Assembly (NCBI GenBank): GCA_010093605.1
Contig: MU004191.1
Span: 1,658,816 to 1,722,815, forward strand
Reading direction: 5' to 3'
Length of the DNA: 64,000 bases
Source of the DNA: Lophium mytilinum
Lineage: Eukaryota
The notes beneath the pieces are model-generated. The model did not search any database, was not told where the DNA came from, and saw only the letters and a program-made list of their open reading frames with translations. A program made the translations under genes and the position numbers. Shown here in pieces: positions 2,289 to 40,800 of this stretch. Position 1 is the stretch's first letter. Each line of letters starts with the position of its first letter.

Positions 2289-3809
2289 CTACAACGGCAC
2301 CTCCTCCATCATCTCCACCGCGCCCTCCCTCCCAACCGTCACAATCACATCCCCCAGCGTCTTACTCAGAAACCCCGCCTCCGAATAGCAGAAATAGTAC
2401 TCCCACTTCCGCCGAAACACCTCCGCCGCCTCCTCATCCCGGCCCCCTTTCACGTGATCCCGCCACAGCGCCTCCTTGATCTCGGCATCAAACTTCGCCT
2501 CGAACTCCTCCCGCCACAGCCGCAGCGCTTTCGCGTAGTGCGGGCCGATATTCTCGATGCTCTCTACGATAAGCGAGTTGTTCGAGCCCGAGGAGATCGA
2601 TGAGACGAGCTGCGCGATGCTGGGCAAATGCCCGCCGGGGAAGATATATTTCCGGATAAAGTCGTCACTACGCGCGTAGGCTTCATAGCGCGCTTCAGGG
2701 ATCGTGATGCACTGGAACACCGCCACGCCGCCTTCTTTCTTTAGCAGCTTATCTATCACACCGAAGTAGACGCCCAGGAACTCCCGCCCCACGGCTTCCA
2801 GCATCTCGATCGACACAATCTTATCGTAGGGCCCGTCAGCGGGAACGGGGAGGTCGCGGTAGTCGGTCAGCAGGACAGTGATCTTGTGGGAGAGGTTCAG
2901 CGCGGCGATGCGTTGTTCTGCGAGCTCTTTCTGCTCAGCGCTGAGCGTGATGGTAGTGACGCTGCACCCCGTGCGCTGCACAGCCTGGATCGCGAACGAG
3001 CCCCAGCCGGTGCCGATTTCGAGGACGCGGTCGGTGGGTTTGAGGTGGGCGTTGTCGATGAAGCGTTGGAGTTTGCGGTGTTGGGCGTCTTCTAGTGTCT
3101 CGTTGCTGGAGCGGGGGTCGGATTTGGGCAGCCAGATTGGGCAGGAGTATGTCATGTCTGGGGAGAGGAAGGCGGCGAACATGTCGTTGCTGATGTCGTA
3201 GTGGGCGGAGATGTTGAGGCGGGCGTTTTTGAGGCCGTTGGAGCGCCGGACGAGGGCGGTTAGGGTGCTGCTAAGGGAAGAGGTGAGGGTGGAGCCGTTG
3301 GCGAGGGCGGCTTTGTTGGCGATGAAGAGGGTGAAGAAGGCGGTTAGTGAGGGGCATTGGACTTCGCCGAGCATGTAGCTTTCTGCGAATCCCTGGTAGG
3401 GGTGTTAGCCGTGGTTTCCTGAAGAAGGTTTGCGTTGACGAGGAGGCGATGCTCAATTGCGCTTGAGTGGTGGATCTGGCGTCTCTGTCTCTTCTCTAGG
3501 GCAGAGTACTGGCAGCTCTATGGTCTAAGAACTAGGAAAACTCACCATGTCGCCTAAAAGTGCTAACCGCACCCAGAACTTGTCGCTCTTGACGCGCAAT
3601 ATGACCGTAGGGTATCCTTCCTTCTCGTTTCCGCACATGGTGGACGACTTGGCGCCGCCCTCGTAGATAGCAAGACGCCCATGCTCAATCTTCTTGAAGA
3701 CAGACATGCAGGCTGTCCTGGATAGCCCCGCAAGCGGGCCCCAAGCTTGTGATTGAGCTGACGTCCATAGCGACTGTGCGCTCTCGAATGGCGCGTAGAG
3801 GAAGTTCAT
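2289..3809 (-). CDS. Cyclopropane-fatty-acyl-phospholipid synthase-like SAM methyltransferase (2 exons)
   Basis: Exon 1 3809-3546, intron 3393-3545 (GTGAGT...CAG), exon 2 3392-2289; the junction reads LGDM|GFAESYM. Motifs: NISAHYDISNDMF, VLEIGTGWG, IVSIEMLEAVG, FIRKYIFPGG, WEYYFCYSEAGF. Confidence 0.92.
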
Positions 3810-23921: not shown

Positions 23922-26900
23922 CTAGTGATCAGGCGCACACTTATTGCAACTCGTAGTCAGCGACTCCACCGCCTGCACCACGTCAAATACGCCGCACACA
24001 AGCTTAGGCGGATTACCCGCTGCCGGAGTCCTAGAGTTCACGCTCGCGCTCTTGTACTGCGGGGGTACGGGGTTCGGGAACGGCGCAGTACTAGACAGCG
24101 GCATACCAGCCGAAGCGACGCGCTGGCCGGCAATGCGGCCGTAGTAGACGTAGCCCTGGTCGCTCTGGCGCTTGCGAGGGCGCGGACTACGCTGTCTGGG
24201 GCCATATGTAGAGTAGTCGCCGGTGGCGTCATGGCCTCTGGCGGCGCTGGGAGAACCTGTATAGCCTGTTTCGGGGTCAGCCACGTTTTGTCTCCATCTA
24301 GTCACATATTCTTCGAGAGTTTCGATGGTGTGGGCTGATATTGTACCGGGTGAGGAGTCATTTCTCTCCCTTCGGTAAGCTCCACCGTGAGGGTAGTCCT
24401 TTGCTTGGACCTCGTCGAACTGCCTCGCAAATGGGACGGAGGCAGAATCACCTTGTCCGAAAGATGGCCCTTGGTCTTGGATGCGCCCGCCAAGGTGGTC
24501 GAACGTTGCTTGTGCGTAGGCAGCAAGGGACGCAAAGCCCTGAGGGGGCACCGGGTACTGGCTACTTGTCGCTTGCGGGTAGGTAGAATACGAGCTCATG
24601 CCTTGGTGCGGTCCCTGGTCTTGGACCGGATAATCGATCGTCGCCTGTCCATACGAGGGATGGGAAGAATGTCCGATCTTGAATGTTCCTTCGGTGTTCT
24701 GAGACCTGTCGATCTTGTTCTTCAGCTTGTACTTGCACTGCTTCTTTTTCGGACTCCGATTCCGCGAGGGCGAGTAAGCTGGTGCTTTCGGCGCAGTCTC
24801 CGTTGGTGGATAGGCGGGGTAAGATGCTGGCCCCTTTAAAGCCTTCTTTGATCGATATGAAGACTGAGGATTTGGCCCTTGTGGTGCAATTGGCATTGGC
24901 TGATACGCAGAGTAAGCCAGGTCTTGCTCCGTTGGGTCGAGGTAAAACGAGCTTTGATGCTGGCTGTAGTCCTGCGGCTCATCGAAGGGAGGGCCTGGAT
25001 TGGCGAAGCCGGCATTACTGAACTTGGGTACGAACACGGGGGCCGTTGCCCTCAAAGAGCCTAAAGCCGATTTTGGTTCGACCTGGGCCAATTCCTGCGC
25101 GGCATCCGCTGATCCCTGCTGAACAGCTCCAACTGACGGCGGCCGGGGGACGGAAGCATCTGAGGATAGTTCCTTGGACCAAGACTGAAGCTTTGAAACT
25201 CTACGAATAGTTGGGATTGGCGATGGAGAAGCGGGTACCTTTGAAGATGCTTCTGTGGATGAAGCTGCCCGTTTCAAAGCTTTACGGCCGCGTACTTCGC
25301 CTGGGACGTTCTTGCCCGCCTCGATGGGACTGTCCCTCCCGTCACGCTCAGGGACCGTTGACATTTTTCCCGATTTCTTGTGTGAGGAACTCTGCTCTCC
25401 GACCGTTTCTTCTCCCAACACAGGGAAAGCAAGGGTAGCTTTGGGTCTGCTAACGAGCTCAGCGGGCGGATCGCATCCTATGAAAAGCATAGACCCAGAA
25501 GAATTGGTACGTGCGGTTCCAGCACTGAGCATTGTAACTGCATCTACGCCTTCGTCTTCGTCATGGACGGTGTCCATATTTTCGGTTCGTCGAGTGATAG
25601 GAGAAGCGCTGAGTGTGTCGGTAGGACGTTCTAATACCGCGATATTCCCGATCTTCATATTGACCTTGGTCTGCCCTCCCAAGTCTGGAGAGTGCACTTC
25701 TGATTCTGGGAGAGGAATTCGGATTTCAGGGGCTGTACTAGCCTCAGTGCCGAAGCTTGCTTTCCGATCAGTTGTCCTTTGGTTGATGAACTCCATGATA
25801 TCAGACCGGGCGCTGAACGAATCTGCAGTCGAGCGGCGAGGTCTAGTTGCCGGCAGGGGAATTTGAGACACTGGTGAAGACGGTATGATTTGGGGTGCCT
25901 TCGAGGTCGGCTGGATTTGTTTCGGAGTCTTGGTTTCGTTGGTTGAGGATCCAGAAGTGACTACAGAAAGTTTCGGCCGTGCGGCCTTCCGCAGCTTGAT
26001 AGTACTAACTTGGGATGCGGACGCCTGACTCTTCACTATGCTCTGCTCAAACAATTCCACGTTAGCAAAGGTCAGCTTAGGAAAAGGCTCCGCTTGGGTC
26101 ATCTCCTCCGCTGCAGTCGAGTAGCTGTGGTCAGAGCTGCTTGTAGAAGCATGACTCACTGGCGAACCCCGCGCAGTACCATACACCGACTCCAGCGGAG
26201 AATGTGGCTGGGGACTAGCCTCCTTCGCGGTGGAGGAAACCGTAGACCTCGTGGGAGAGAGAGTGATCTTAATCGTGTTCGTTCGTCGTGGGGACTCGCG
26301 ACTCGGAGATCCCGAAGAAGAATCTTTGAGGGCACTCTTCGAAGACATAGATTGTAGCTTCTTGTTGGACAGAGGTTCAGGACGGCTGAGTGGATGCTCA
26401 ACAGATCGGGCATCTCCCTCTACTAGATCCACAGCCTCCATTGCAAAGGGGGTCGATGCCTCAGCGGTATTTTCCTTGCGTGACACCGTTTCTCGTCTTC
26501 CTTTGATCATCTTCTGGCGGTCTTTTGCTGTCTTGCTCGGCTCGATTGGCGACGAATGCTTTGACCCACGCGCTGCGGCTCGCCGAGCGGTCTCCAGGTG
26601 TGGTCCTCTGGACTCGGTCGGGCGACGGGATACCGATTTGCGAGGGCTCGATGGGCAAGCCGTTTGGGTCAAAGGGGACATGGAGGTGGGATTGGGAGTG
26701 TCTTCTAATGCTAGAGCGTTAGCTTTTGGATTAGTGATGGATGGTACTGGTGACTTACCCGGCGACATGGGAAAGCTGGGGACTTGGGACAGCATGCTTG
26801 TAGGCTCACCAGTCGGGCTGCCCAACCAAAGTAGTTCATCCAGGGATGCTTCCATGTCGTATTTACGAGAACTGCTTGATTGGAGTTCTTGCGAGTCCGT

Positions 26901-27635
26901 GTGTTGGGTACCGGGGTGCGCTTCTTGAATGACGCGAGCATCAGAACCGTGACCTTCGTGGGCAGGAGACTCTTCTCTCGCGCCTAGATCATCTTCAGAA
27001 ACCATGTCTCCGATCTCTCCGGAAGATTGTCCGGTCCCTGACTCGAAACGAGCGACGATTTCTTTCACCTTGCCATCGTTCTGTAAAATGTCCGTCGTAA
27101 ACCCGGAAAGAGTGGAATCCCCAAAGTCAATGGATACTGTCAAGCCAGAGAATCTATCTACGATAGAATCATAGTGTTGTTGAGTATCCAGACGAGACTC
27201 GACCGGTGTGGTCGACCTATCCAATGACGTTGATTGAAGCGCCTCAGTTGGTAAGGCTTCTGACTCGCACGCGGTAGCCATGGACGGTGTTGTTTTGATG
27301 GAAGATGTGACGTCAGAGTACCTACGAGCAGCTGTGATAACTCGGTCCGTTAATGGAGATACTGAGCTACGGTTCGTTGGCGTGACGGTAACGGAAGAGA
27401 CGTGAGAGCGGTCGGTGTCAGTTCGAGCCATTGAAGGAGCCTCACGCGAGAAGGTCTTTCCTGGTGGCATAGAGGAAGAACGGCCTGAGGTCAGTTGCGC
27501 CCGCTCCTGCCGGGACTCGCGCTGCGAGCCTAGGACGCGTTGTTGCTGAAAGCCCGGGGCTTTCTCGCAATAGTCCAGGAGAACGAACTCTTGGTGGCCG
27601 CAATTGCCGTGGAAGACATAGTTAAAGTAGCACAT
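23922..27635 (-). CDS. Large (about 1237 aa) Ser/Pro-rich disordered protein with Cys-containing termini and a PAM2-like motif
   Basis: Long intronless ORF. Likely ATG at 27635 (MCYFNYVFHGNCGH...YC). SLRATAPVFVP at about 25026-25058; C-terminal CG...CNKC. Confidence 0.85.
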   Translation of the reverse strand: MCYFNYVFHGNCGHQEFVLLDYCEKAPGFQQQRVLGSQRESRQERAQLTSGRSSSMPPGKTFSREAPSMARTDTDRSHVSSVTVTPTNRSSVSPLTDRVITAARRYSDVTSSIKTTPSMATACESEALPTEALQSTSLDRSTTPVESRLDTQQHYDSIVDRFSGLTVSIDFGDSTLSGFTTDILQNDGKVKEIVARFESGTGQSSGEIGDMVSEDDLGAREESPAHEGHGSDARVIQEAHPGTQHTDSQELQSSSSRKYDMEASLDELLWLGSPTGEPTSMLSQVPSFPMSPGKSPVPSITNPKANALALEDTPNPTSMSPLTQTACPSSPRKSVSRRPTESRGPHLETARRAAARGSKHSSPIEPSKTAKDRQKMIKGRRETVSRKENTAEASTPFAMEAVDLVEGDARSVEHPLSRPEPLSNKKLQSMSSKSALKDSSSGSPSRESPRRTNTIKITLSPTRSTVSSTAKEASPQPHSPLESVYGTARGSPVSHASTSSSDHSYSTAAEEMTQAEPFPKLTFANVELFEQSIVKSQASASQVSTIKLRKAARPKLSVVTSGSSTNETKTPKQIQPTSKAPQIIPSSPVSQIPLPATRPRRSTADSFSARSDIMEFINQRTTDRKASFGTEASTAPEIRIPLPESEVHSPDLGGQTKVNMKIGNIAVLERPTDTLSASPITRRTENMDTVHDEDEGVDAVTMLSAGTARTNSSGSMLFIGCDPPAELVSRPKATLAFPVLGEETVGEQSSSHKKSGKMSTVPERDGRDSPIEAGKNVPGEVRGRKALKRAASSTEASSKVPASPSPIPTIRRVSKLQSWSKELSSDASVPRPPSVGAVQQGSADAAQELAQVEPKSALGSLRATAPVFVPKFSNAGFANPGPPFDEPQDYSQHQSSFYLDPTEQDLAYSAYQPMPIAPQGPNPQSSYRSKKALKGPASYPAYPPTETAPKAPAYSPSRNRSPKKKQCKYKLKNKIDRSQNTEGTFKIGHSSHPSYGQATIDYPVQDQGPHQGMSSYSTYPQATSSQYPVPPQGFASLAAYAQATFDHLGGRIQDQGPSFGQGDSASVPFARQFDEVQAKDYPHGGAYRRERNDSSPGTISAHTIETLEEYVTRWRQNVADPETGYTGSPSAARGHDATGDYSTYGPRQRSPRPRKRQSDQGYVYYGRIAGQRVASAGMPLSSTAPFPNPVPPQYKSASVNSRTPAAGNPPKLVCGVFDVVQAVESLTTSCNKCAPDH

Positions 27636-28250
27636 GTTGACGTAAATGCCCCTAGGCGTTGCTGACGCGCACGTCGAGGTGTGGTGGGGTGGTGGTTGTG
27701 TTATTGGCGCAGGCAGAGGAAGGCGCGACGGGGGAAACTTATAACACGGCTTGGAAAATCTTGACGCCGAAACTTTCAGCTTTTCACGATGATGATCACC
27801 ACCACCTACCAATATAGACGTCTGCGTCTCTCGGTGAACGCTATGTCTAGTATGGAAGAAACTGACGCCTACAGGATAAACCACCCTTACTGACCTTTCT
27901 TCTGGTGCAATGTGCATCACAATAGTAGGCCATGCGTCTGGGCACACGGATAGCACTGTTCGACTACCGCTTTTGCAAGCTAGATACCACTGTCAAGGCC
28001 GGCCCCATCGTGAAGATACCTCTTGGTCAAAAGGAAGCTCAGATCACGCGGTCTAAAACCTGACATGACGCCTACCTTGTGGTCTCTCCATCGGGGTGCC
28101 CCTGACAGTGGCAACCGAGTGTGCACAGATTTATAGCCTGTCACTGTAGGAGCCTCACATCTGCTACGCTTCATCCGACCTACCAGTCTTATTAATCGTA
28201 CATTCTTGACTACCTACTAGTTGAATCCATCCGCAACAGTGGCCATTCAA

Positions 28251-32146: not shown

Positions 32147-33424
32147 TTATGGCCCGACCGGTCCACTTTCCTGTCAGCCGCCGACGGCCACTTAAGCCAG
32201 GGTGTGCTATATGTGAGCTTCATTCAACGGCTGTCCATAGTACTCAGGTGCATCGAGCTTGGCGCGCCTCGGTAAATACTACCCTTGGAAATCGAATCGT
32301 TAGGGGGTGCTTATATGTAATTCAGCCACAACCCTAGATGCCACCCCTATTCAAGTTATTACTGCTTTCAGATTACAGTTTGATATTCGCCGATCTCACA
32401 CTTGGATGCATGTTCCTTCTTTCTCTTTGCTCCTCGGACTTCGTGAGGTTCGCTGAAGTGACGCTACTTGGACATGCCGATTTCAAGAACGATTCGAATC
32501 AACTTTTCAGCCCGTAAGGCGGTCGATCGCGGACGACGGTCTTTGCATGATGATATTTGCATCCCGCTAGTCGTTACCCGCAGTCTGGGGATTTTCTTGG
32601 TGCAGAAGGGCGGATACATGAAGGTCGTGGGCGCCCGCTCTCCGCAGCCCCACCGGACGGTCAGGCTCTATTGTGTCCAAATGCGGACAAAGCTTTGCAC
32701 GTGTGAGGCAGAAGAACAACGGCGGTTGTTGCGATGAGCAAGCCGGCGTGTAACAGCGCGTGCGCTTTGTTACTGGCGGCACGGCTTAATGTCCCGCCAC
32801 GCTCTCACAAACCCCCCAGATGGTCGTGTGCTTGGGCACCATGGTGCAACACAGGGCGCGCGATTCTAGAAGACCTGGGACGCATGGAACCCGGGCAGAC
32901 GCCTGAAGGCGGCGTTATTGCAGCAGGCCTCTCCGGCCGGCACTGACAACATGGGCTGCTGCATGTTCCCGCTCGGGGCCTGGCACACCAGTCACCGCCC
33001 ACAAAGCGGTGGGACTGCGTTGGTCATGCCTCCCTTGTCCCTTTGCCAATTGGCCGCGGCGTCGGGCTTGCAAGGCGTCCGCCGCCTACAGCAGCCTGCG
33101 CCGGATTGTCACACTCACCATGGAGAAAGGCTTTGATATCGGCCTGTTTGCTGCCATCGCCGGCTGCGGCAGGAAAAAGCTCTTGCGCATGCGCTGGCAG
33201 CCGCTGCCAGATGACTGTGCGTGCTGCTGCTCCCGATCTGGGGCAGTCCGGCTCGATAGAAATGTCTCAGCATTCGCTTCACTCTTTCTGGACGCCCTAT
33301 TGACCACTCTGATCGCGCCATCTTCACCACTCGCGCCGTACCACCATTGGCGCTGGCATCGCATCTGGCCACTGCTCGAGATCTCTCTTCTCCAATCCTA
33401 CTGCAGCTAGACAGCACAGCGACC

Positions 33425-35061
33425 ATGTCGCGCCCAGTCTCACCCCATCAGACGTACCCCGGGGACCCCTCTGCAGAAGTCGGTATCACTGCTGCACCGC
33501 AGAGCCCCTTCTGTCCCAACGGCCTTCCCGATATTCAAAACCCTTCCTCTTCGCCCTCCCTGTTGGCTACACCGCGCTTCATGGCGTCCACATCCTCTGC
33601 TCCCGCCAATTCCAGGGCATCTCGCTTCCAGCCATCACTGATGGATATCAACGAGAGCCTCCAGTGGTCTCCAGGATGCGACCTTCCCTTTTCTCAGCTT
33701 TCACAGGAACCTTCCAACTATCAGATGACACAGCAGTACACTCCAGACTCCAGTGCCCTTTACAATTACACCGCTCAGCGGCTCCCTTACAGGTCTTCTT
33801 ACAACATGACATACTCTCCCACAACCACCGAGTCTAGCTGTCCTCGCACCTACACTGGCCTTGATCTAGTCGGCTCTGCAGGAAACATGAATGAATCGTA
33901 TCCTCCTTCGGCGTATCTCCTCGAGCCCCAGAAACCTCAGGACATGCTGGACATATCATCTCACCTCACCCCTGGATCTATGTGCAATTTTGAGGACGAC
34001 TTCGAAGGACACTGCCCAGCCATGATGAAGTCCGAAGATTCGAACTACGGCCATTCTCGGTTTGATTCAGATATCAGTATGCCAAACAGCATTTCTACGC
34101 CAGAGCCTCAGGTGACTTCCGTCGATACTTGTAAAAGCGAACCATCTCACGAAGACGCAAACGTGGACAAGGAGCAGCCGTATGCCCAACTTATCTACCG
34201 CGCTCTCATGGAGCAAGAAGGCCACACAATGGTCCTTCGAGATATCTACAACTGGTTCAAACGCAACACAGACAAGGCCACCGACAAAGAAACCAAGGGA
34301 TGGCAAAACAGTATACGTCACAATCTTTCCATGAATGGGGTAAGAGCTCTCAATTGTCGATCTGAACCGTATATGACTAACCTGTTCAGGCATTTGAGAA
34401 GGTAGATCAGCCAGTCGGAGATGCCATGACCCGAGAAGAAGCTAAGAAAGGCTTCATGTGGAGGCTGACGGATAGCGCGATCCGTGAAGGTGTCAAAAGT
34501 ACCACCAGATACAGGAGCAAGCTACCAAACAAACGAGGCTGCAGATCGCAAAATCCTGCGCCACAGCGACAAGCGTCTGGAGCGAAGGGAGGCCAAGCTG
34601 CAAGGAAAGCTGCGCGTCTGAGACGATCGGAACGACTGAGAGACACACGCAGCGTGCCGATGCACAAAGGCGACACGTATCCACCAAGGCCCGGGCCAGC
34701 ATACACTCCATTCGATAATTTCTCTCCTTCTGATCTTGCCATGGGTTACCCGGCATCGCCATACTACTGCCATTCCGAGATGGACTTCGGTAGTCCGGTC
34801 AAGCAAGAGGCCTTGCCGTCTCCCTTTGGACAGAATCTAGACATTCTCTCAGGACAACCGTATCCAGACTCACCGCAAGATCTCTGTCCCGATATGCGCT
34901 ACCTTCTTCCGTACTCGCCTGAAGAACCCATGTTCTACGGTAGTGGATCGGAATCTGGGAGTGAACCAATGACCCCACTGTCGTCACAAGACTACTGCGC
35001 TATGGACACGTCCATGCCACAGGACCCTGCATGCCACCCTGAGGCTGGCGAAATCTATTGA
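33425..35061 (+). CDS. Forkhead (winged-helix) transcription factor
   Basis: ATG at 33425. PYAQLIYRAL...LRDIYNWF...GWQNSIRHNLSMNG|AFEKV...KGFMWRL, with intron 34340-34389. Confidence 0.93.
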
Positions 35062-35676
35062 TGCGGATCTAATCACCAAAGTTGGTTAGCGGTTCATTTC
35101 ACTGATAATATTTCCTTGCATAGTCTACAGCAATTTATTTTTCCCAACCCTCTTCACGGCGGCGGCAATTCTAGCCAAATTATCATCCTGTGCTTTTGCA
35201 TATCTCATGCATGGGCGCGCGTTAGTATCATCGCCTCTCCAATGATGGTGAACGCGGCGTTGGGGAGGTTCTATTACGACATGTCACGATTTCACTCATA
35301 TTCGCATCGCATCACATCCGCATCATTTCATACTCTACACAGTTTCCTTCGCAAAAACCTCGTTTGCTGCTCGCATTCTATCGTCACGGCCCCCATCTAC
35401 TAAGCAACCTATAGACTTATCTTCGCATAACGATTGTGCCTTTCTGCTCGAGTCGTCTAGGAGATGAAACGGGACGTCTCTCTTGTACAGATATGTACAA
35501 AATATCCATGGTTCTTGTGCTCTAGAACTGGCAGCTGGGAGGAAAGGTCCAAGATAGAGATCAATGTTTATTACTGGTACACCTATGCTTGCATCCATAT
35601 TTTCGGTTTCACTGCTGCTGGCACCCTGAAAAGCGATCTGCGAGTCACCAATTTCAAACTCACACAGCAGGAGGGG

Positions 35677-37085
35677 TCCAACACCTATCTCTTACTCGAT
35701 CGAGGCACTAACCCTAACTTAGCATAAAGATGCCGATAGCCTTGCCAACGTCAGCCCAACGCCCACAATTGCAGAGAAATGCGAGAGCCTCTTCGAGGGC
35801 CCTCAGCCCGCCTCCTGTGCTGCTGGCACCTTACGGCTCGGCAAAAGACACGGCTCGGGACTTGCAACGGGTGCTGTATGGTCCACGATGCAGCCACTCT
35901 CGCGATGGCGAGATTGGCAGCGTCTCAGCTGCGCGTGTCGGCGCACATGGGCTGCGGTCCATATTTCGTCAGCCGTTACGCTTATCGCTCTCGTACTCCC
36001 CTTCCTGCACGTTGCGGCCTCCAGCTGCAGACGCGGTTATGTTCCGGTGTCAAAACTCGGAGGTTTGATGTGCTGTGGAACATGTAGGTGAGTAAAATCT
36101 CCGCTGTTGCCAGGGATAGTTTCACTTTTGATGTCATGCTTTCGATGTTTCCTTTAGTCGAGTTGTAAAGGTTATGCTCAGCCTTGCGAGCGATAGCCAT
36201 ACATATTGTTGTCATGCTTTATATACATGCCTCACAAGTCAAGCCGCGTTCTGCTATCTTGATACCCAGGTAAAGACATCATTTCCTGATGCATCAACCA
36301 TAAAAATAGCCTGAATTCTTACGCATCAAATCAGCATCTCCGTTAATTCCTTCTTTGACTCCAAGCACGCACGCGAGCTTCCCCTCAACCTAACCACCAA
36401 TGACAGACTCGTTAACCTTAGCATTGGTCCGCTGCGGACCGTACCGCGAATCCGCACCGAAACGGGCCGGTCCAGAGCTACTGGCTCTGGATCCCGAGCG
36501 CCACCACTCTCCGCAGCGGGCATGCAGGAGGCAGTCTGTCCCCTCGTCGCCGCGAAAGATCTCATCGCCGCTACTCCCACCACACCAAGGGCACCGATTG
36601 TGACACAAAATGTTTCAAGAGAAGTGTCACTGCAGTAAATCGCTGCCTTGGGCCCGGATGCATGCTACCCTGGAATCCAGACCAATAATATGATGTCCCA
36701 TCAAGATTTACGGCGCAGTGGCCATGCGGTTCGTCGTCGAGGTTCACTGACACTAGTCGCGGAAGGTGATCCGCTGCAGAAAGGAACATGCCACGCATGC
36801 ATGGCGATCCTGTCCCGCACAGTTGGAGTTTACTGCCGGCAGAAAGATCTGTAGGGCGTGAAGTGGTTCCCATTGGTCAACTTTGATGGTTGCAGGGCCT
36901 GAAGCTTGATTTGTTATTCGTGCCAAGCAACACATCTAGAGAGGCAGGCTCGGTGTCACAAAAACTGGCAGTTCGCTTAAGCCAATTTTAGCGTAGAAGA
37001 CTGCCAGTTTTTGTGACACCGAGCCTGAGAGGCGCCCCGCTTTGGCAGATCGGTTGGTTCCAACGCCTCCTCGATCGAGGTTGGA
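35677..37085 (+). ncRNA. Candidate telomerase RNA core (transcript boundaries unknown)
   Basis: CTAACCCTAAC at 35708-35718, complementary to TTAGGG repeats. Possible helix 35695-35705 with 37069-37079 (plus 35677-35682 with 37080-37085) ending 2 nt before the template. Many hairpins and no credible ORF. P6.1 and Sm site not identified. Confidence 0.35.
36945..37027. mobile_element. 83-bp MITE-like element: 28-bp perfect TIRs, 5-bp TSD (AGAGG)
   Basis: CAGGCTCGGTGTCACAAAAACTGGCAGT at 36945-36972 and its exact reverse complement at 37000-37027. AGAGG at 36940-36944 and 37028-37032. Confidence 0.85.
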
Positions 37086-37600
37086 GCTATGCATGTTCGA
37101 CAGCTTATAATAACTTACCAAACACGAATAGCTGTGCTGCCCGTGCTTTGATCTGAGGAGAGCTGAAAACTTGGGCAGGCAGAGCGGACCAAAATCAATT
37201 TCCATTTCACAGTCTTCTGCCTCCACTTAGAGATACTCGGTTCTGTTACTGTCTTGTGTTTTCTGCCTCCGCTTCATACTCAGTCAATTTCTTGCGTTCC
37301 ACAATCGCCAATATTTCTAACTTGCCACGATACTGAATAGTCTCACTGACCTTGAGAAGGCTTAGAATGCTCCCGTAGGCCTCCTCCTCTCAAAATTCTC
37401 AGTTCTCTGACTAGTCACTTGTCCCCTCAGCTGGGAGGATTTGGCTAGTCTTGAATGAGGCCTTGAGCAGGATGATCTCTGTGGTAGAAGCTGAAATCTT
37501 GAACGGTGAGGCTGAAACAGACACCCACCTTCAGTCGGCACATCGTCTTTTGGGGCCTTTTTTCAAGTACAAGGCCTGGTTCAGTCATAATGCTACTTGC

Positions 37601-37852
37601 CACGCGGGTGACACAAAAAGCCGTACACCAAAACCGCTTATCGTTTTTAGAACACAATTACACCCCAACGCTCTGAGAGAACAATATTTGAAAAGCAGAT
37701 GATAATAATCTTCAAAAGCAGCTCTATCTGTCAGGATTAGTTCTGTATGCTGATTAGTAGTGGTGGAGTGAGACGGCTTCGCTTTAAGGTGTACTTCGCT
37801 GACCTAAGTGATTTAGGTGGTTTGGTGTACGGCTTTTTGTGTCACCCGCGTG
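37601..37852. mobile_element. 252-bp MITE: 32-bp perfect TIRs, 5-bp TSD (CTTGC)
   Basis: CACGCGGGTGACACAAAAAGCCGTACACCAAA at 37601-37632 and its exact reverse complement at 37821-37852. CTTGC at 37596-37600 and 37853-37857. AT-rich non-coding interior. Confidence 0.9.
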
Positions 37853-40800
37853 CTTGCGTGTTCACCAACTTGTCTAGGACCTCCATGCTCCTAGCACGTC
37901 ATACCCCAAGATCATCTTCAACCTTGCACGCACTTCGTGGATGGAAAAAACCTAACGAGAACACTCCTGAATTGCACGGCCTGATGAGCCAATACTACTT
38001 CCACATTTTCCAAACAGCATCTACTATGTGAGCGTTGACACGAGAAATAGTGAGGATAACTACATCATACCGTCGCTTCAAGTCTAGTGGAATTGCCCGT
38101 TCCAAAGCTCAACTAACTATTAACCTTACACCTATCGCCAAATTGGGCCAGTGGAGATAGTACGGCGCAGGTGGCCCCAACTATAACCAGGGGCTGTCGT
38201 CGTTTCCCATTAACATCACGTGGATATCACGTGGTAGATGTACCAAGGGTATTCTTGTTTTGTGTGTGCTTGCATCGAAATGCTTGTCTAGACCGCGAAC
38301 TCACGAGAGTGCTGCAGGTTCCACATCTGTGAGATATTAATCGTCTGAGAAGGATGCCCTACTGCTTGCATGCATGACGGAGCAGTTTGAGGTTTGCATA
38401 GCGTCACCAGGCTTTCTGGTCTGCAGACCAAAATCTGGAACGCACTGATTTACTTACAACCAAGTTCGGCATGGTAGAGTAGATCCTGGCTACAGTAGTA
38501 CCCCTGTATAGTGGTATTATCCATATCGTAATACAAGTGCCCTGACCGTACGATTTGCGTCGTATAAAATTATCGTTCTGCTTAGTGTGGCATTACTGAG
38601 CCCCTCTGTTACAGACTGGGCTTATTAGGTATGTGAGAGTAATGCCCCTTTCTTAGGTTCGAAAATAGACGACACGTGACCCTAGGTAATGTGAATTCTT
38701 TCTATACAGTGATATTACCCCTGATTCCGGACCCCTATTACTATAACCAGATATCACGGTATGAGCCAACTCCCCGCCATTGTCGATCTGCCTCTACACC
38801 GTATGCATTCTTAGACGAAAGCGATGATATACAGCGATAAGCACTGCTAGATTTCGAATTGGCTTATTTATGCAGCTGATCATTCATAAACGATGAAACC
38901 TGATCTCCAGCCCGAGTGCCTGGGCCTACTTTCCGACGGCCGCATCAAGAATTCATTCAGCCCTCGTTTGAGAAGCCAATCGTCGCTAATTCCAACAAAG
39001 AGCCTGTATGCCACGGAACCAACGCGCCTTCTATCACCCATCACGATAGCATGGATCCGCCACCCAGTTGTATATGGCCTAATGATGCTAGCCTCCAACG
39101 CCTGTTCCCACGTCAGGCTCGAGTTCACCTGCACGATCTCAGCTGGAACCGTTATCTCAAAGCCGCGAAGTGGAACATGTGGATGTTTTCGGGTCAACGA
39201 TCCCGTGTGCATCAGTTGGCAGTACTCTTCAAGTTATTGGATAAAATCTGCATATCATGATGCATAGGAATTCGTATATGCTCACTCGGCACATTCCCTG
39301 TTCACATCACATATTCGGTGCATCAGCTTCATATTACCGGCTATCCACTATCTCTGACCTTTCTAGCTTTAGCGTTATACAGCTCCTAGGCGCAGACTAT
39401 TGGTGCGGAAGGCCTCCCGGGGCCCCCGAGCGATCGATTTCATTCGGAATTGCCGTCTACTGGCCGAGAGGACTCCGACCAACACTGTGCCTAACCCTTT
39501 CAAGTTCTTTGGCGACTCACCGTTCATGAGCACGGAGATGTCCGAACCATCACAATAACACAACATCAACTTACCGACTGCGGATTCCCTCGTTTTGCAG
39601 CGTGCTGTGAGTTCTGTGTGCTCATAATCAAGGAGACTTGCTTTTGTTCGGCGTTTCGGACGCGGCAAAGCCTCTTTTGACACCCCGATCCAGGCTGCTG
39701 ACATCCCCTTCACTTCGATCGAACTCGACCAAAGTAGCCTGAGATTCTTTACTACGTATCCTCGGAAGACAGACGTCAATACCTCCAAGCCATTTCAAGC
39801 AGCATTCGCACCGATCAAAGAGCCACACGATGCTCTCGATTGAGCCGGCTGCTTCCGAATTTGACAGAGCCGGCAGAACCGCGAAAACCTCCAGACTGCG
39901 ACCAGCGAAGAAATCCCTTCCAGACCTGATTATACTCCCTTCAACTTGCCTCGAGATGACACATCACATATGTACCAGACTACAGCTTCGCTATTGTTGG
40001 CAGCGTAGATTTGGTGTCACAGGCGCAGTTGGGTGAACCCCTGAGCCTTTGCTGGATACTCGACAACAACAGCGTCACCATGTCAAGATTCATCTTGAAG
40101 GACGCACAACCTCTCACCCACGCTGCTGACGATGATCTAGGCAGCATAGGGCTTCAATTATGCGCCACCAGCGTCATTCACGAAGCTCGAATGCCGATGT
40201 GGAAAATGCCTTCACCCTCGTCGTGACAGCGCGATCTTCGAATTCATCGAGCAATACCCGAGGAGGGAGGCCACATGAACTGGCTCGTACCGAGAGACGC
40301 AATTACGACCTACAACCGTCTCGACACTGTCTTCGTCGACATCTCACAGCCAGTGTGCGCCACTGATGGAAGCTGCCTTGACGATGGTGAAGAGGTTTAC
40401 AAGACCCGAGATGAGTGCCCTTCAGGTCATATAAGAGTGGTTGAGAAAGTAAACGTCGATAGGGGCTACATATATGGAAGGGAAAGACTCTGTGAGAGGC
40501 AGACTGGATATCGGCCGCAGAACCGGCTGTCGCTGGAAAGTTCGCATCTCAGCCTGAATCAAAAGGCAGGACCCCAGCGTGTTACCTCCATGCGTCATCT
40601 CATACTTACTCAGGGCGATCAAACTAACCATGACCTCGTCATTTTAGCGACCGTGTTTTGTAGTCTCGCTTTGAGAGGCGGCTATGGACTGACTGAAATA
40701 GCAACAATAGCTGGAGGCCTACGATCACCATAAATCGCCTACACGTTTACCCAGTTAGCCCTTAGAGAGAAAGTATATATGTTTTGTTCGAAAGAGAGAA

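Follow-up and report, generated by a model that had tools for sequence, protein, structure and literature searches.

Two related families of miniature inverted-repeat elements with 5-bp target-site duplications, probably mobile, in a fungal genome

Introduction

A 64-kb stretch of contig MU004191.1 of Lophium mytilinum (64,000 nucleotides, referred to as the window) contains two short non-coding segments, E1 and E2. Each segment ends in perfect terminal inverted repeats (TIRs) and is bordered on both sides by the same 5-bp sequence. An initial annotation, made from the letters of the DNA, took the two segments for related MITEs (miniature inverted-repeat transposable elements) with target-site duplications (TSDs) of 5 bp. 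It also compared an A-rich part of the TIRs with the nonamer of the V(D)J recombination signal sequence (RSS) and named Transib and hAT5 as possible relatives of the transposase. The locus therefore raises two questions, namely whether E1 and E2 are mobile elements and which type of transposase has moved them. In the analysis described here, E1 and E2 are very probably real, multi-copy MITEs that represent two related families making 5-bp TSDs (probability of about 0.85). The type of transposase can be narrowed to a tentative preference.

Results

Architecture of E1 and E2

E1 consists of 83 bp (36945-37027) and E2 of 252 bp (37601-37852), with 573 bp between them. The arms of each element are 100% complementary over their entire length (28 nt in E1 and 32 nt in E2). 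The termini read CAGGC...GCCTG in E1 and CACGC...GCGTG in E2. Among the 11 inverted-repeat pairs of at least 18 nt in the 64 kb, only those of E1 and E2 are perfect. For any one pair of sites in this window, the empirical probability that the 5-bp flanks are exactly identical is 0.0014, and such identity is observed twice. The flanks of E1 can also be read formally as a 7-bp repeat (GAGAGGC) with the ends of the element shifted by one base; those of E2 allow a 5-bp reading only. The 5-bp TSD is favored for E1 because copies of the element diverge exactly at 36945 and 37027, as described below, and because E2 is unambiguous. E2 additionally contains the motif TACACC at ∼24-29 and ∼59-64 nt from each tip, as found by reading the sequence, and these motifs could serve as subterminal binding sites.

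The tips of E1 and E2 are related to each other. Over their first 20-21 nt, the two TIRs align with one gap and are identical at 16 of 20 aligned positions. This region includes a conserved block, GGTG-W-CACAAAAA, whose distance from the tip is 7 nt in E1 (GGTGTCACAAAAA) and 6 nt in E2 (GGTGACACAAAAA) and which is alike at 12 of 13 positions. The same 12/13 agreement was reached in 16 of 200,000 composition-preserving shuffles (offset within ±2 nt). When one mismatch is allowed, GGTGWCACAAAAA matches only the four arms in the window (0.21 matches expected), and no further TIR motif is found in the window beyond these arms. Past position 21, the E1 and E2 TIRs are unlike each other, and the interiors of the two elements are unrelated.

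These features agree with most of the anatomy given in the initial annotation. Arm pairing and flank repeats bear out two non-coding elements with perfect TIRs and exact 5-bp TSDs, and the tip identities and the 12/13 block support the proposed division into two related subfamilies. The shared TIR pattern that had been drawn, CA(G/C)GC followed by GGTG(T/A), is also present, but the uniform spacing between its two parts is not, given that they are 2 nt apart in E1 and only 1 nt apart in E2. A chance origin of the combined TIR and flank-repeat anatomy is excluded because flank identity is rare, the perfect pairs are unique and the conserved block is confined to the four arms.

Copies of E1 and E2 in the genome

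Further copies were sought in contigs of two public runs (X1 and X2) of one sample, which were placed on positions 36800-38000 at a likeness of 80% or higher. This 1.2-kb stretch is matched by 50 contigs in X1 and 46 contigs in X2. The X1 contigs (n = 50) exhibit graded likeness to the window, with 13 contigs at 99% or higher, 8 at 95-99%, 17 at 90-95% and 12 below 90%. In X1, the unique flanks have a summed contig depth of 145-153, whereas E1 reaches 426-794, the E2 arms 3056-3137 and the E2 interior 484-709. The X2 profile resembles that of X1. We take the depth only to mean that there are several E1-type copies and that E2-type ends outnumber E2-type interiors.

The positions at which the copies part from the window coincide with the tips of the elements. 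Among the loose ends listed (12 of 27), copies diverge just before 36945 (three contigs in X1 and three in X2), just behind 37027 (two contigs per run) and just before 37601 (two contigs in X1 and three in X2). One further listed contig departs at 37597, and the right end of E2 is absent among these listed loose ends. Because contigs depart at the tips, the segment that moves extends exactly from TIR to TIR, and the 5-bp repeats are target sequence. The initial annotation had named an absence of other copies as evidence against its proposal, and the contigs that diverge at the TIR tips are such copies. Within E2, two contig joints skip 94 nt (37677-37770) and 90 nt (37698-37787), and one contig carries the E2 TIR and diverges after 37634. 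The E2 family thus includes deletion derivatives and members with other interiors.

E1 is nearly all hairpin. As single-stranded DNA, the whole element folds into a 28-bp hairpin (−38.4 kcal/mol, z of −14.8), a form that would also be expected if the two segments were not mobile at all, that is, if they were palindromes arising by chance or for structural reasons, or genes for RNA hairpins with fortuitous flank repeats. This explanation is opposed by the two independent exact 5-bp flank repeats, by the many contigs of the same genome whose similarity stops exactly at the TIR tips and by the Rfam search, in which no family was matched in 35000-40500. It is consequently regarded as highly improbable.

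Proposed transposition of E1 and E2

E1 and E2 combine TIRs, abutting TSDs, a small non-coding body and copies that end at the tips, as is characteristic of MITEs. [quoted passage not shown] In the mechanism that we propose, both elements would be mobilized in trans by a DDE transposase whose gene is located elsewhere in the genome. The transposase would bind the GGTG-W-CACAAAAA block 6-7 nt inside each tip and cut at the CA...TG termini. The excised element would then be inserted at target cuts staggered by 5 bp, whose repair would yield the 5-bp duplication. The perfect TIRs and TSDs give both insertions a recent appearance.

An autonomous partner of E1 and E2 is absent from the 64-kb window because no transposase domain was found among the scanned open reading frames (ORFs). 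Pfam searches returned no domain of a transposase or other transposable element in the 27 window ORFs of at least 150 aa or in 150 of the 153 stop-to-stop window ORFs of at least 100 aa. The other 3 of the 153 were scanned as start-trimmed versions within the set of at least 150 aa.

Several points weigh against the interpretation of E1 and E2 as multi-copy MITEs of two families. The sample behind X1 and X2 is possibly the source of the window itself, so its contigs speak for copies within one genome only. Summed contig depth is not a copy number. An autonomous copy or a transposase was not seen, and we infer both the mobilization in trans and the role of the block. Finally, the TSD length of 5 bp is drawn from two of two insertions.

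Transposase superfamily

The length of a TSD reflects the strand-transfer geometry of the transposase, and hAT ends typically begin with CAG. We tentatively favor a transposase of the hAT type that makes cuts staggered by 5 bp, on account of the frequency of this superfamily in fungi and the CAG tip, although we would place this assignment somewhat below even odds. hAT elements are ubiquitous in fungi (PMC5751038), and hAT groups with TSDs of 5 bp (hAT5), 6 bp and 7 bp are on record (PMC12730594), in agreement with the 5-bp TSDs that the initial annotation ascribed to some hATs. Among hATs, the TSD length of E1 and E2 fits hAT5 alone. The hAT assignment is weakened by the TSDs of fungal hATs, which measure 8 bp (7 bp in Puccinia), and hAT5 lies within an animal lineage, whereas the fungal hATs group with Ac/Tam3 (PMC12730594). 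The TIRs are also long for this superfamily. hAT TIRs measure 5-27 bp; the greatest length known as of 2014 was 28 bp, and the yeast hAT Roamer has TIRs of 28 bp (PMC4316626). The TIRs of E1 and E2 (28 and 32 nt) exceed the range of 5-27 bp, but are borderline in view of Roamer.

Another candidate is a Transib-like transposase or another member of the RAG1-related CMCT clade, in which case the A-rich block would correspond to the RSS/Transib nonamer and the finding would be the first such in a filamentous ascomycete. We consider this candidate unlikely. Transib elements make 5-bp TSDs and contain a 38-bp TIR in which CACAATG and an A-rich nonamer are separated by a 23-bp spacer (PMC1131882, Kapitonov & Jurka 2005). 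The CMCT clade, Transib included, exhibits 5'-CA..TG-3' termini and TSDs of 2-5 bp (PMC12730594). E1 and E2 share the 5-bp TSD, a Transib hallmark (PMC1131882), in both of the two insertions, and their CA...TG termini and TSD length fall within the CMCT description, although such features also occur outside the clade. Moreover, E2 ends in CAC/GTG, and TIRs of 28-32 nt are closer to the 38 bp of Transib than to typical hAT ends. CMCT lineages also exist in fungi, such as CNEST of Cryptococcus, which has 33-bp TIRs that start with CACGG (PMC12810828).

The likeness to the RSS nonamer that the initial annotation had reported is real at the level of letters, with an 8/9 match to ACAAAAACC in every TIR (36958, 37006, 37613 and 37832) and a further match in E2 at 37627. 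The gap between the heptamer and the A-rich stretch, however, is 6 nt in E1 and 5 nt in E2 (9-mer start at position 14 and 13, respectively) and not 12 or 23 nt, as the initial annotation had itself cautioned. The second match in E2, at TIR position 27, leaves a gap of 19 nt. Matches of this quality are also common, with 24 in the window against 11.4 expected, 19 of which lie outside the elements. The CAC triplet is conserved in 21 of 21 Transib families and is essential in RSSs (PMC1131882), but E1 ends in CAG/CTG and does not follow this rule. These three observations (the CAG of E1, the gap of 5-6 nt and the abundance of nonamer matches) tell against the Transib/RSS reading put forward in the initial annotation, and the resemblance is weak.

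Transib targets are GC-rich, and in fungi Transib is recorded from soybean rust only (PMC1131882). The two targets here (n = 2) are AGAGG and CTTGC, both with a G+C content of 3/5. When fungal genomes were surveyed with the RAG1 Pfam model, no Transib was reported, and it was described as the only superfamily 'missing from Fungi' (PMC5751038). The CMCT lineages recorded in fungi come mostly from Basidiomycota, and their TSDs are TA or 3 bp long (PMC12730594, PMC12810828). It appears improbable that E1 and E2 are non-autonomous traces of an active Transib-like or CMCT lineage in a filamentous ascomycete, a group from which Transib has been reported as absent, with a compact TIR in which the A-rich block is located 5-6 nt from the cleavage tip. 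Membership in neither hAT nor Transib can be claimed.

The anatomy of neither hAT nor Transib fully matches that of E1 and E2, as would be expected if the transposase came from another known superfamily with an atypical TSD, or from an undescribed one, and if the hAT-like and Transib-like features were coincidental. The TIR strings had no match in the literature searched, and in one curated library 105 of 331 consensus sequences of fungal transposable elements are unclassified (PMC12612061). Such an origin is a credible prospect, yet short of an even chance, about level with or slightly behind a hAT-type transposase and ahead of a Transib/CMCT-type one. Members of a superfamily usually share the same TSD length, and the documented makers of 5-bp TSDs that we found are Transib, hAT5 and Ginger2/TDD (PMC1131882, PMC12730594, PMC2836005). 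Ginger2/TDD elements have TGTNR termini and TSDs of 4 bp, or 5 bp in TDD-4 and TDD-5 (PMC2836005); E1 and E2 lack TGTNR and start with CA. The Tc1/mariner-pogo group is disfavored by the absence of TA from the TSDs, the flanks being AGAGG and CTTGC.

Relatives in other genomes

A metagenome scan with a degenerate pattern of the tips yielded at least 117 loci, 37 of which have short flanks only. Among the matches listed, 0 of 117 had a partner in inverted orientation that differed at no more than 4 of 20 positions. Two loci that appeared closer were rejected as chance matches. L033 agrees with the E1 TIR at 25 of 27 positions, but its DNA is prokaryote- or phage-like by eye and has no partner. 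L044 has a partner with 5 mismatches at a distance of 2.6 kb, without a TSD or a convincing TIR.

Six loci (L015, L017, L020, L077, L092 and L107) represent one orthologous site on eukaryotic, fungus-like metagenome contigs. At this site, the E2 tip is matched at 22/22 positions by a solitary sequence (5998-6019 in L017), and the match extends to 29/33 by eye. The L017 contig encodes Ebp2, ERp29 and TruB domains, and the tip match is intergenic, located between the ORFs with the Ebp2 domain and a zinc-dehydrogenase domain. No partner TIR is present within 6 kb. The exact 22-mers of each TIR had no match in 596 Gb of prokaryotic genomes, and given this result for the same 22-mer, the solitary tip may be what is left of a related element in a different fungus. 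Because its second end is missing within 6 kb, the tip is uninformative with respect to the transposase.

Genomic environment of E1 and E2

The coordinates of the two elements and of their conserved blocks are given in Table 1.

Table 1. Components of E1 and E2 in the window
Feature	Position	Strand	Remark
E1 left TSD, AGAGG	36940-36944	unstranded	exact repeat
E1 left TIR, 28 nt, CAGGC start	36945-36972	+	arm pairing; listed copies diverge directly before 36945
Conserved block GGTGTCACAAAAA, E1 left arm	36952-36964	+	putative transposase-binding site (binding predicted)
E1 center, 27 nt, non-coding	36973-36999	unstranded	
E1 right TIR, 28 nt	37000-37027	-	arm pairing; listed copies diverge directly behind 37027
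Conserved block, E1 right arm	37008-37020	-	
E1 right TSD, AGAGG	37028-37032	unstranded	exact repeat
E2 left TSD, CTTGC	37596-37600	unstranded	only 5-bp reading fits
E2 left TIR, 32 nt, CACGC start	37601-37632	+	arm pairing; listed copies diverge directly before 37601
Conserved block GGTGACACAAAAA, E2 left arm	37607-37619	+	
E2 interior, 188 nt, non-coding	37633-37820	unstranded	varies among copies
E2 right TIR, 32 nt	37821-37852	-	arm pairing
Conserved block, E2 right arm	37834-37846	-	
E2 right TSD, CTTGC	37853-37857	unstranded	exact repeat

Both elements are located within ∼5 kb (35062-40226) that contain no Pfam-matching ORF, downstream of a forkhead-domain gene (33260-35058, + strand). 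In 35062-40730, 14 stop-to-stop ORFs have a length of 100 aa or more, and no Pfam match was obtained for them. Over the whole window, the Pfam domains comprise fungal rhodopsin, DUF7730, cactin (over three ORFs), XLF, forkhead, tyrosinase and a hybrid histidine kinase. These genes mark the window as nuclear DNA of a fungus and suggest a filamentous ascomycete. A 1356-aa open frame on the − strand (23925-27992) has no Pfam domain at E ≤ 1e-5. Between E1 and E2, a 17-nt direct repeat, GTCTTCTGCCTCCACTT, occupies 37212-37228 and 37258-37274, with the second copy 88% identical. Upstream of E1 by ∼340 bp, the 11-mer GTGACACAAAA (36600-36610) is the same as part of the E2 block; it was set aside as a probable chance match, with a BLAST E value of 3 and similarity that ends there.

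The window contains a third MITE-like element at 1518-1749 (core 1521-1746), in which 48-nt arms are 81% complementary. When its ends are taken as CAGCG...CGCTG, TA is found on both flanks, and the element looks to be of the Tc1/mariner type. It is unrelated to E1 and E2, and it is older, given its imperfect TIRs.

Discussion

The two elements are of interest mainly for the length of their duplications. MITEs as such are ordinary, but a 5-bp TSD is uncommon in print for fungal TIR families. If the partner transposase of E1 and E2 is a hAT, elements of the 5-bp hAT type would be extended to fungi. If it is related to RAG1, it would belong to a lineage of which a large survey found no member in fungi, and the interest of the locus would rise sharply. 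Whichever enzyme is involved, E1 and E2 are, in our interpretation, recently active small elements that can insert near genes and alter their expression, and they belong in the repeat library of this fungus. To our knowledge, no transposase partner has been described for E1 and E2 or for PdMLE1, one of the closest known elements.

PdMLE1 is the only fungal TIR element with a 5-bp TSD in the literature searched, which excluded Repbase, Dfam and survey supplements, where the family of E1 and E2 may already be listed. It is a 199-bp MITE of Penicillium digitatum whose insertions differ by 5-bp TSDs, and it acts as a promoter that leads to fungicide resistance (Sun et al. 2013, as described in 10.1101/798991 and PMC4336317). 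Like E1 and E2, PdMLE1 is a short, non-coding TIR element with a 5-bp TSD in a filamentous ascomycete. It differs in length (194 bp plus the TSD, compared with 83 and 252 bp), and the comparison is one of published descriptions.

The other known systems each share part of this anatomy. hAT5 elements (Kapitonov & Jurka 2007, as cited in PMC12730594) are cut-and-paste TIR elements with 5-bp TSDs, as are the families proposed here; unlike E1 and E2, they belong to an animal, Blackjack-related lineage, and the TIRs of E1 and E2 are longer than is usual for hATs. Transib resembles E1 and E2 in its 5-bp TSD, its CA...TG ends, its TIRs of tens of nucleotides with an A-rich block and its non-autonomous derivatives, but it differs in the invariant CAC, which E1 does not have, in its 12/23-type spacing and in its RAG1-like transposase, which was not seen here. 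The ESTA and CNEST elements, which are EnSpm-like with remote similarity to RAG1, resemble E2 in their fungal host and CA..TG ends, and CNEST comes close in its tip and TIR length (CACGG and 33 bp, compared with CACGC and 32 nt in E2; PMC12730594, PMC12810828). They make TA duplications and come from Basidiomycota, in contrast to the 5-bp duplications of E1 and E2 in a filamentous ascomycete.

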